From: Escherichia phage HK3
Length of the DNA: 64,000 bases
Strand: one strand, 5' to 3'
Sequence record: PP526765
The notes beneath the pieces were generated by a model. That model saw only the letters and a program-made list of their open reading frames with translations. It made no database searches and was not told the origin of the DNA. Made by a program: the position numbers and the translations under genes. How positions within the stretch are numbered: the first letter of the stretch is position 1; each line of letters starts with the position of its first letter. Positions 9,146 through 10,360 of the stretch are shown one piece after another.

Positions 9146-9207
9146 AATTTTGAGAGGGCTATTTAGCCCCTCCCTTAAAGAGTTCTTACGAGTACCCTTT
9201 AAAGGAG

Positions 9208-9294: not shown

Positions 9295-9425
9295 CAGAAG
9301 ACCGTTTACAGCAAAACTTAAACAATCTATTTCTCGGTAAAGAAAAGGTGAAGGTTCGATTCCTTCACTCGGCAGATGTCGAGTTGGTGTAATGGTAGCA
9401 CTTAAGATGATAAACAACGGTCTGG
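9295..9425 (+). ncRNA. candidate Y-RNA-like (YrlA-like) RNA: terminal helix enclosing circularly permuted tRNA-like domain
   Basis: 5' CAGAAGACCGTTTACAGCAA ... 3' ACGGTCTGG helix; inside: T-arm GTGAAGG-TTCGATT-CCTTCAC (9348-9368), closed acceptor-like hairpin ACTCGGC-AGAT-GTCGAGT (9367-9384), D-arm GTGT-AATGGTA-GCAC (9387-9401); no anticodon arm. Confidence 0.5.
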
Positions 9426-9826: not shown

Positions 9827-9855
9827 TTGACATTGAGATGTGACCACTTTATAGT
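9827..9855 (+). promoter_or_regulatory. sigma70-like promoter (TTGACA-17-TATAGT) internal to tRNA region
   Basis: TTGACA 9827-9832, TATAGT 9850-9855. Confidence 0.6.
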
Positions 9856-10058
9856 AACCTTAGTTTTCGTTGCGTAGCGTCTATTTTGCAAATTTAAAAT
9901 AAATGCAAACGACAATGTTTTTCTGGCAGTAGCTTGATAGGCTAAACACCAGTGAGGTCTTCCAATCCCTCATCAAAGAATTTGGCGTACTAGCCCACGG
10001 TATGATTAATAAGGTGGGCATCTTTAAGGGTTTTTTAAGAGAGTCTTTAAAGATTAAT

Positions 10059-10135
10059 GCACCCTTAGTTCAACTGGACAGAACAAATGACTTCTAATCA
10101 TTAGGTTACAGGTTCGAATCCTGTAGGGTGTGCCA
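10059..10135 (+). tRNA. tRNA-Arg (anticodon UCU)
   Basis: manual fold: acceptor GCACCCT/AGGGTGT, D-arm GTTC-AACTGGACA-GAAC, anticodon stem AATGA/TCATT loop CTTCTAA, T-arm ACAGG-TTCGAAT-CCTGT, CCA. Confidence 0.8.
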
Positions 10136-10277
10136 AATAGTTAGCAGATTGCTTAGACGACCTTATCGGGTCTCCGTGTAGGGAGGTGGTCTGTATCTCA
10201 TGTTTTCCAGAACATGTAAATAATCTGAGAAGGGGCTTTACAGTGTTGAGATAATACGGTAAGCTTCGAATTATAGT

Positions 10278-10360
10278 ATGGGACGATGTTAAGACTCTAA
10301 GGCATGAGCAACGGCTTCCAACACCGTTTCAAAGGGATTCAACTCCTCCGTCCCATGCCA
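10278..10360 (+). tRNA. atypical tRNA-like gene (possible tRNA-Trp, anticodon CCA) with extra nucleotides between acceptor and D-arm
   Basis: perfect 7-bp acceptor ATGGGAC/GTCCCAT + G + CCA; anticodon-like loop TTCCAAC; D-region 8 nt longer than canonical; weak T-stem. Confidence 0.3.

Follow-up and report, generated by a model that had tools for sequence, protein, structure and literature searches.

In tRNAs the link between the acceptor and D stems is universally two nucleotides long (U8-N9). Phage T4 encodes in its tRNA cluster two small structured stable RNAs, C and D (species 1 and 2), which are of unknown function and are co-encoded and co-processed with the tRNAs; these RNAs lack a recognisable anticodon identity, whereas the element described here reads as a clear derivative of tRNA-Trp. 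From acidobacterial polycistrons, Mukai et al. 2017 (PMC5389517; review PMC7609411) described irregular tRNAs of the (8/4) type in which an extra loop (E-loop) separates the acceptor stem from the D stem. The tRNA-Other of Bacillus cereus is a tRNA-like gene, aberrant to standard annotation, for which a non-translational role has been proposed (PMC3399842), and variants of tRNA-Trp(CCA) with changes in the tRNA body are able to read UGA.

The element analysed here lies in the tRNA array of a Felix O1-like myovirus of the genus Felixounavirus, Escherichia phage HK3, of which a stretch of 64,000 nucleotides (hereafter the window) was studied. With the E-loop tRNAs of Mukai et al. it shares the unpaired loop between acceptor and D stems, the location in a tRNA gene cluster and, as a prediction, the 8-bp acceptor and 4-bp T stem, a likeness of layout; those tRNAs come from soil metatranscriptomes with no cultured source, bear other anticodons and are linked to toxin-antitoxin genes, whereas the element has the anticodon and identity elements of tRNA-Trp and belongs to lytic phages of E. 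coli and Salmonella. The UGA-reading tRNA-Trp(CCA) variants resemble it in having body changes at position 9 or in the D arm and an effectively 4-bp anticodon stem, but its D-region change is an insertion where theirs is a point mutation, and in its anticodon stem it is the bottom that a C·A mismatch opens, the 26-44 pair at the top being Watson-Crick. In contrast to tRNA-Other, a chromosomal gene flanking a genomic island and reported to be non-functional in translation, it occupies a phage array and is allelic with a tRNA-Trp gene. Canonical tRNA-Trp(CCA) genes (71 nt in wV8-type phages, 74 nt in an unrelated metagenomic contig) share with it the anticodon CCA, G73, A1-U72, the encoded CCA, a 5-nt variable loop, the T loop UUCRAnU, the D-loop GG and the position in the array; it is unlike them in its 6-7 extra nucleotides, G8 for U8, A·C at 49-65, C·A at 31-39 and a D stem of 3 bp. 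Non-canonical tRNAs with an extra loop are thus a known kind of element, and what is new is the Trp identity and the setting in classical lytic coliphages and Salmonella phages.

Anatomy of the element and its response to tRNA finders

Read 5' to 3', the element runs ATGGGAC GATGTTAAGA CTC TAAGGCAT GAG C AACGG CTTCCAACA CCGTT TCAAA GGGA TTCAACT CCTC C GTCCCAT G CCA, and its parts are located in Table 1. An earlier note on this DNA had described an 83-nt sequence closed by a perfect 7-bp acceptor helix and followed by a discriminator and an encoded CCA, and the sequence bears this out: ATGGGAC (10278-10284) pairs with GTCCCAT (10350-10356), after which come G and CCA. The anticodon-like loop TTCCAAC with the anticodon CCA, also reported there, is present on the stem AACGG/CCGTT that encloses CTTCCAACA, as is the C·A mismatch in this stem, which adjoins the 7-nt loop and is formed by bases 10315 and 10323, the equivalent of positions 31-39. 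The D hairpin consists of CTC/GAG closing TAAGGCAT. In the stretch GAUGUUAAGAC, which spans the connector, the distance from acceptor to D stem is 9-10 nt versus 2 nt in canonical tRNAs, with G at position 8; the expansion ahead of the D stem, which the note had put at about eight nucleotides, is therefore real, although slightly smaller in size (6 nt by deletion scanning, 7-8 nt by alignment). Compared with canonical tRNAs, U33, CCA and A37 are invariant in the anticodon arm, 31-39 is a conserved C·A and 26-44 is a Watson-Crick pair; the T loop UUCAACU matches the canonical T-psi-C-R-A pattern, and the 49-65 equivalent is A·C in all copies. RNAfold returned a cloverleaf for the single window sequence, with an unremarkable energy (z = -1.1).

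Table 1. Positions in the window of the tRNA-Trp(CCA)-like gene and of its parts.
Feature	Position	Strand	Remarks
Non-canonical tRNA-Trp(CCA)-like gene, whole	10278..10360	+	83 nt; family covariance model score 108.9 bits
Acceptor stem 5' strand (A1-C7) and G8	10278..10285	+	G8 can pair with C72, giving an 8-bp acceptor
Expanded connector (extra loop), AUGUUAAGA	10286..10294	+	carries the 6-7 surplus nt
D arm, 3-bp stem CUC/GAG, loop UAAGGCAU	10295..10308	+	loop includes the GG of G18-G19
Anticodon arm, stem AACGG/CCGUU	10310..10328	+	anticodon CCA at 10318-10320
Variable region and A49 equivalent	10329..10333	+	A56 opposite C72 is an A·C mismatch in the 7/5 reading
T arm, stem GGGA/UCCU-CCUC, loop UUCAACU	10334..10348	+	A at 10337 private to the window copy
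C72, acceptor 3' strand GUCCCAU, discriminator G (10357) and encoded CCA (10358-10360)	10349..10360	+	

ARAGORN called 25 tRNA genes in the window, all on the + strand between 8498 and 13500; in agreement with the earlier note, neither Trp nor Asp was among them, and no call was made at 10278-10360 in the default mode. The element was not called in the intron and lowered-threshold modes either, and a tRNA-Pyl proposed in another register by ARAGORN at the 80% threshold was rejected as spurious. The Rfam tRNA model RF00005 gave no match at E<=10, even when only a 103-nt stretch was offered, and the Felix O1 copy was matched by the Rfam tRNA-Sec model alone, with 16.9 bits against a threshold of 47. 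A canonical tRNA in a different register, which the note had named as the result that would speak against its reading, was thus found neither with ARAGORN nor with Rfam. When 6 nt were removed from the common form of the element, anywhere within positions 9-19, ARAGORN called a 77-nt tRNA-Trp(CCA), whereas none of the deletion variants of the window copy, which has A at 10337, was recognised.

Conservation, covariation and descent

A random sequence of 64 kb is expected to contain about 1.7 matches per strand to a perfect 7-bp helix followed by NCCA, and a single sequence therefore proves little by itself. This expectation speaks for a chance resemblance, and the short hypothetical ORFs placed across the element in some GenBank records speak for a small protein-coding region; the ORFs that overlap the element have, however, only 22 and 36 codons, and chance is refuted by the covariation, the synteny with tRNA-Trp, the homology to canonical tRNA-Trp and the covariance-model matches given below. 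Because of its position in a tRNA array, its conservation in about 200 phage records and its covariation, the element is not a chance occurrence, and we give chance and coding together next to no credence.

The record closest to the window was that of Salmonella phage BPSELC-1, with 99.4% identity over 1 kb around the site. Megablast with the 83-nt element retrieved 198 phage records, and blastn with a 238-nt stretch retrieved 253, 229 of them with near-full coverage; the element was also found in the Mooglevirus phages Mordin, Sf18 and KPS64, in about 25 IMG/VR contigs and in several metagenome contigs. No paper annotating the gene was found, and none of about 70 record rows inspected annotates a tRNA at the element. 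The genome paper of Felix O1 reported 22 tRNAs obtained with tRNAscan-SE, and the table rows and record annotation inspected for this phage hold no tRNA at the position of the element (PMC3185647); records whose annotation was made with tRNAscan-SE likewise show nothing there. Outside this group, a degenerate family pattern gave 120 IMG/VR matches, none of them tRNA-like, a signature of T arm plus acceptor gave no match in 185,579 bacterial and archaeal genomes, and the matches of an acceptor pattern in metagenomes were mostly due to chance.

About 45 element-bearing loci were fetched, yielding 13 distinct 83-nt variants, and base pairs were counted on the cloverleaf. In this alignment 98.8% of the cloverleaf cells were paired, and six pairs had changed on both sides: four of the anticodon stem's five pairs, and one pair each of the D and T stems. 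Covariation of this extent was reached by 0 of 500 shuffles, and sliding the structure by 1-3 columns left no compensatory change. The acceptor pairs 1-7 with 73-79 were 100% paired in the 13 variants, A1-U72 becoming G1·U72 in three of them; the D-stem pair 19-30 changed from U-A to A-U in the Mooglevirus copies, the T-stem pair 57-71 from G-C to U-A in the Sf18-type copies, and positions 32 and 38 changed jointly, being either U and C or C and A. While the stems turned over, the anticodon CCA, U33, A37, the D-loop GG, the C·A mismatch and the connector GAUGUUAAGA remained unchanged, and the T loop was kept as UUCRAnU. The connector was invariant in 13/13 variants and 36 loci; variable columns amounted to 19/83 in the element, 0/10 in the connector and 78/142 in the upstream spacer, the last figure being somewhat inflated by indels. 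RNAalifold independently recovered the cloverleaf and added G8-C72, a pair that stacks immediately on a T stem of 4 bp.

These results show that the element is a structured RNA under selection for the cloverleaf, not a neutral relic. The earlier note had listed a tRNA-derived pseudogene among its readings, and an insertion-inactivated tRNA-Trp decaying in the array would account for several features: the silence of ARAGORN and of the Rfam tRNA model, the mismatches at the equivalents of 10-25, 31-39 and 49-65, the scattered pair-breaking changes, including the G-to-A of the window, and the dispensability of tRNA genes in the array, from which tRNA-Asp has been deleted in the window. At the level of the family, however, such decay is disfavoured and largely refuted, since six compensatory double changes and 98.8% pairing are unlike a neutral relic, since the anticodon-loop core and the connector are invariant across two genera and a distant metagenomic relative, and since the conserved mismatches are identical in all lineages and look like fixed features; a relic is accordingly quite improbable. 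Pair-breaking T-stem changes occur in some lineages (the window, L160/L161 and L084), a hint that the constraint is less than strict.

The change in the window, which the earlier note did not mention, is a G-to-A at 10337 (element position 60) that breaks a further pair in the T stem. A was found in the window only, G being present in every other copy seen, namely in BPSELC-1, the approximately 45 fetched loci with their 13 variants and the 198 GenBank records (best identity 98.8%). The substitution converts the G53-C61 equivalent, which is G-C in all other copies, to A·C, and the predicted T stem of the window copy slips to a 6-nt loop. The window copy may be a weakened allele or contain a sequencing error, and a partial loss of function through A at 10337 may apply to this one copy.

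A different content was found in the same slot in 23 records, about 10% of the relatives (wV8; the O157 typing phages 8, 11, 12 and 15; GE_vB_7A; phiSUSP1; Sf19; and others). Homology of the wV8-type phages to the window stops at 10277/10278 and resumes at about 10362, some 2 nt past the CCA, and the slot between these points is occupied by a canonical tRNA-Trp(CCA) of 71 nt and, after it, an ORF of 134 codons that is weakly similar to HNH endonucleases; the two always co-occur in the 23 records. As the breakpoints fall at the ends of the element and a tRNA-Trp lies in the same slot, the two forms are alleles of one slot, and both were found in more than one genus. Side observations on the cassette concern its mobility. 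The HNH-type endonuclease gene (L003 2641-3138, with equivalents in the 23 records) and the canonical tRNA-Trp travel together as one unit; the odd allele is present in VpaE1 and the canonical cassette in the record named VpaE1_ev78, a difference that, going by these record names only, fits movement of the cassette by recombination or homing. Further HNH-type endonuclease genes lie between tRNA genes (L001 1138-1623, 2111-2503 and 3421-3834), their placement varying by phage. Together, these observations suggest homing-driven replacement of tRNA genes.

The unrelated IMG/VR contig 3300021168_000019 (L010), of 98.6 kb, carries a canonical 74-nt tRNA-Trp, called by ARAGORN, whose acceptor stem is identical to that of the element and whose T arm reads AGGGG-TTCAAGT-CCTCT versus AGGGG-TTCAACT-CCTCC in the common form. 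All tRNA-Trp genes compared, including that of E. coli, aligned with the element end to end save for a gap of 7-8 nt in the 5' D region. The covariance model built on the 13 variants scored ordinary tRNAs at 20-36 bits over their full length, canonical tRNA-Trp at 44-46 bits and L099 at 60 bits. The last is a second atypical form, of 80 nt, which in the tRNA array of a metagenomic phage comes after Met, Ile and Arg(tct), in that order; it has the acceptor, the T arm and the C·A mismatch of the element and a different expanded D region. Taken together, the slot, the alignment, the deletion test and the covariance model lead us to regard the element as clearly a derivative of tRNA-Trp. An unusual tRNA-Trp and a tRNA with an insertion, offered as separate possibilities in the earlier note, come to one and the same reading, which the slot, the alignment, the deletion test and the identity elements support.

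In the acceptor/T branch, canonical relatives have U8 and a Watson-Crick 49-65 pair, whereas the atypical forms have G8 and an A·C at that place, so that G8 can pair with the former position-65 C. The acceptor is probably an 8-bp helix on a 4-bp T stem, which keeps the usual total of 12 bp; this layout is predicted rather than demonstrated, because G8 and C72 never vary. Since a 9-nt connector replaces the U8-N9 link, core contacts of the U8-A14 type cannot be canonical. Other foldings that involve the connector were considered. The segment AUGUU can pair with GGCAU of the D loop in an alternative fold that excludes the D stem supported by covariation. A pairing of connector UAAGACU (13-19) with the 3' trailer AGUCUUA was rejected: U19 covaries with A30 and not with the trailer, L099 keeps the trailer without a complementary connector, and the trailer also occurs in wV8-type phages that lack the element. 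A pseudoknot of 9-13/24-28 with 18-20/29-31 would have a zero-length crossing loop, and its helices were treated as mutually exclusive alternatives.

Neighbouring elements of the tRNA array

A consensus scan found no terminator-like site on the + strand between 8374 and 13663, which makes it probable that transcription of the array yields a single long RNA or a few. A promoter belonging to the element itself, at 10246-10274, was rejected, as it has 9/12 matches and such sites are no more frequent in the region than in shuffles.

The upstream spacer (10136-10277) shows both conservation and structure: a long hairpin lies at about 10144-10194 and another at 10199-10216. This spacer is kept whichever tRNA-Trp allele a phage has; in L099 a different sequence takes the place of the second hairpin and still folds into one. 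Ahead of this spacer lies a tmRNA-like messenger domain (9862-10058, core 9896-10020), which reads GCA AAC GAC AAT GTT TTT CTG GCA GTA GCT TGA, that is, ANDNVFLAVA-stop, closely resembling the ssrA tag of E. coli, ANDENYALAA. A strong promoter-like site (9827-9855, 11/12 matches) is situated just upstream. The tags ANDAQFLAVA, ANEEMYLAVA, ANDNTFLAVA and ANDDVVLMAA are encoded by homologs from unrelated phages, in which third codon positions change synonymously and the helices downstream covary, and blastn with the core retrieved hundreds of phage records, without annotation. ARAGORN called no tmRNA, the Rfam tmRNA models scored 14-27 bits, below their thresholds, and an alanine-type tRNA-like domain was not found in the window; in Carvaje and in E. 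coli phage C1 a T-arm-like domain lies near the 3' end. In VpaE1_ev78 (L002 2060-2141), between tRNA-Ile and an endonuclease gene and roughly at the position of the tmRNA-like element in the window, the record annotates an untyped 82-nt 'tRNA' that ARAGORN did not call.

Two other irregularities were observed on the 5' side of the array. The tRNA-Asp(GTC) that follows tRNA-Tyr in Felix O1 is missing in the window, at 9146/9147, and in BPSELC-1. A CCAAT repeat stands at the 3' end of tRNA-Tyr and another at that of tRNA-Asp, and the gene was lost by a deletion of exactly 82 nt between the two. No tRNA was called in the 430 nt that separate tRNA-Tyr from tRNA-Lys; within them, the region 9340-9420 contains an orphan perfect T arm, GAAGG TTCGATT CCTTC (9350-9371), without CCA, after which come a hairpin of 6 bp and the D-arm-like GTGT-AATGGTA-GCAC. 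This region may represent a fragment of a tRNA or a tRNA-like piece in permuted order.

Relatives of the phage hold aberrant tRNA-like genes of their own, in KPS64 (L033, ~1165-1285; also in Mordin, L004), SUSP2 (L026, ~9932-10085) and Hafnia phage SPARTY (L035, 2667-2752). They combine a normal-looking acceptor and T arm with a body of 85-155 nt and are called by no program, and those of KPS64/Mordin and SUSP2 have a clean GCCA end. The tRNA arrays of the Ounavirinae seem to contain several aberrant tRNA-like elements.

Proposed function and its implications

The main bacterial determinants of Trp identity are G73, the first pair A1-U72 and C34-C35-A36, and those of B. subtilis tRNA-Trp include the acceptor pairs G2-C71, G3-C70 and G4-C69 (PMC9976931). 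The element has the anticodon CCA, G73 (10357) and A1-U72, with G1·U72 in three variants; versus the B. subtilis determinants, 2-71 is U-A and not G-C, and G3-C70, G4-C69 and G5-C68 are present. We favour, with modest confidence, the reading that the element is a charged, UGG-decoding, non-canonical tRNA-Trp(CCA) that is selectively maintained, because the Trp determinants are present and the window has no other tRNA-Trp; its transcription, processing, charging and decoding are what we infer. Points that weigh against it are U2-A71 for G2-C71, C·A for U-A at 31-39, the core contacts altered by the 9-nt connector, the uncharged E-loop tRNAs of Mukai et al., the pair-breaking T-stem changes of some lineages and the silence of the Rfam tRNA model, and allelism with the canonical tRNA-Trp is no proof of equal function. 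A literature search for Felixounavirus transcriptome or tRNA-seq data returned nothing but an unrelated preprint on the isolation of phages.

According to this proposal, the element would descend from a canonical phage tRNA-Trp lineage with the acceptor AUGGGAC/GUCCCAU by a gain of about 7 nt in the 5' D region, and would fold into an 8-bp acceptor, a 4-bp T stem (G8-C72 standing in for the lost 49-65 pair), a 9-nt extra loop and a short D arm, with an anticodon stem that ends in the conserved C·A mismatch. It would probably be co-transcribed with the tRNA array and be released by RNase P and 3' processing. The acceptor/T-arm stack, the T loop and an encoded CCA are the requirements of these two steps. 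Charging would most likely be carried out by the host TrpRS through G73, A1-U72 and C34-C35-A36, and the tRNA would read UGG during infection, doing the same job as the canonical tRNA-Trp in the slot of the sister phages.

A less probable possibility, which we nevertheless take seriously, is a processed and conserved tRNA-like RNA that does not decode. Such an RNA might, as a decoy or sponge, titrate TrpRS or a host nuclease that targets tRNAs; it might also have a regulatory role or direct the processing of the polycistronic tRNA transcript. The connector and the D loop are wholly invariant while the stems turn over, which suits a sequence-specific binding site better than a spacer, and the AUGUU/GGCAU pairing between them would hide the GG needed for the L shape. 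Pseudo-tRNAs with non-translational roles are known, tRNA-Other of B. cereus being one example (PMC3399842), in vitro, E. coli GlyRS and ThrRS, the two enzymes used, failed to charge the irregular E-loop tRNAs assayed by Mukai et al. (PMC5389517), and host defences cleave tRNAs, tRNA-Trp included (PMC12916289). The invariant CCA, U33 and A37, the joint change of 32 and 38 and the Trp identity of the acceptor are, however, what decoding needs; a decoy for a nuclease aimed elsewhere on the tRNA could do without them, but a sponge that binds TrpRS or an anticodon nuclease could not. The sister phages, moreover, have an ordinary tRNA-Trp in its place.

The altered body of the element also raises the question of whether a charged tRNA-Trp of this shape reads UGA besides UGG, as a phage-encoded near-cognate opal suppressor. 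Changes that allow tRNA-Trp(CCA) to read UGA are A9C, G24A (the Hirsh suppressor) and a 4-bp anticodon stem (PMC13092985), and the element is altered where these fall, at position 9/D arm and in an anticodon stem of effectively 4 bp; the C·A at 31-39 is, in addition, common to the element, L099 and L011. The documented effect, however, concerns stems opened at the top (27-43), and the element is opened at the bottom (C31·A39), a class set aside as unstudied (PMC13092985). A top-opened stem like that of Blastocrithidia was not found, the top of the element's stem being formed by Watson-Crick pairs that covary. About 21% of the long ORFs in the window end in TGA, and no credible in-frame candidate for UGA read-through was found there: one candidate was rejected as lying within a 727-codon gene on the other strand, and a second, formal candidate is a 95-codon ORF on the minus strand. 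UGA reading is for these reasons improbable. If it were true, most Felix O1-like phages would bring a natural opal-suppressing tRNA of odd shape into E. coli and Salmonella, and termination at UGA would be altered during infection, or a defence that depletes or cleaves the normal tRNA-Trp would be bypassed.

About 200 genomes of Felixounavirus and Mooglevirus carry the element, unannotated in the rows inspected, so that one tRNA is missing from the tRNA counts and codon-coverage tables of these genomes. If the element is charged and used, as in the reading that we favour, it would be a natural tRNA with a 9-nt connector that works with the TrpRS, EF-Tu and ribosome of E. coli or Salmonella, and extra-loop tRNAs, so far found only in soil metatranscriptomes, would become testable in classical phages that are easy to grow, Felix O1 for example. 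The odd tRNA on the one hand, and the canonical tRNA-Trp with its HNH-like gene on the other, form a natural pair of alleles for asking what purpose the odd shape serves.
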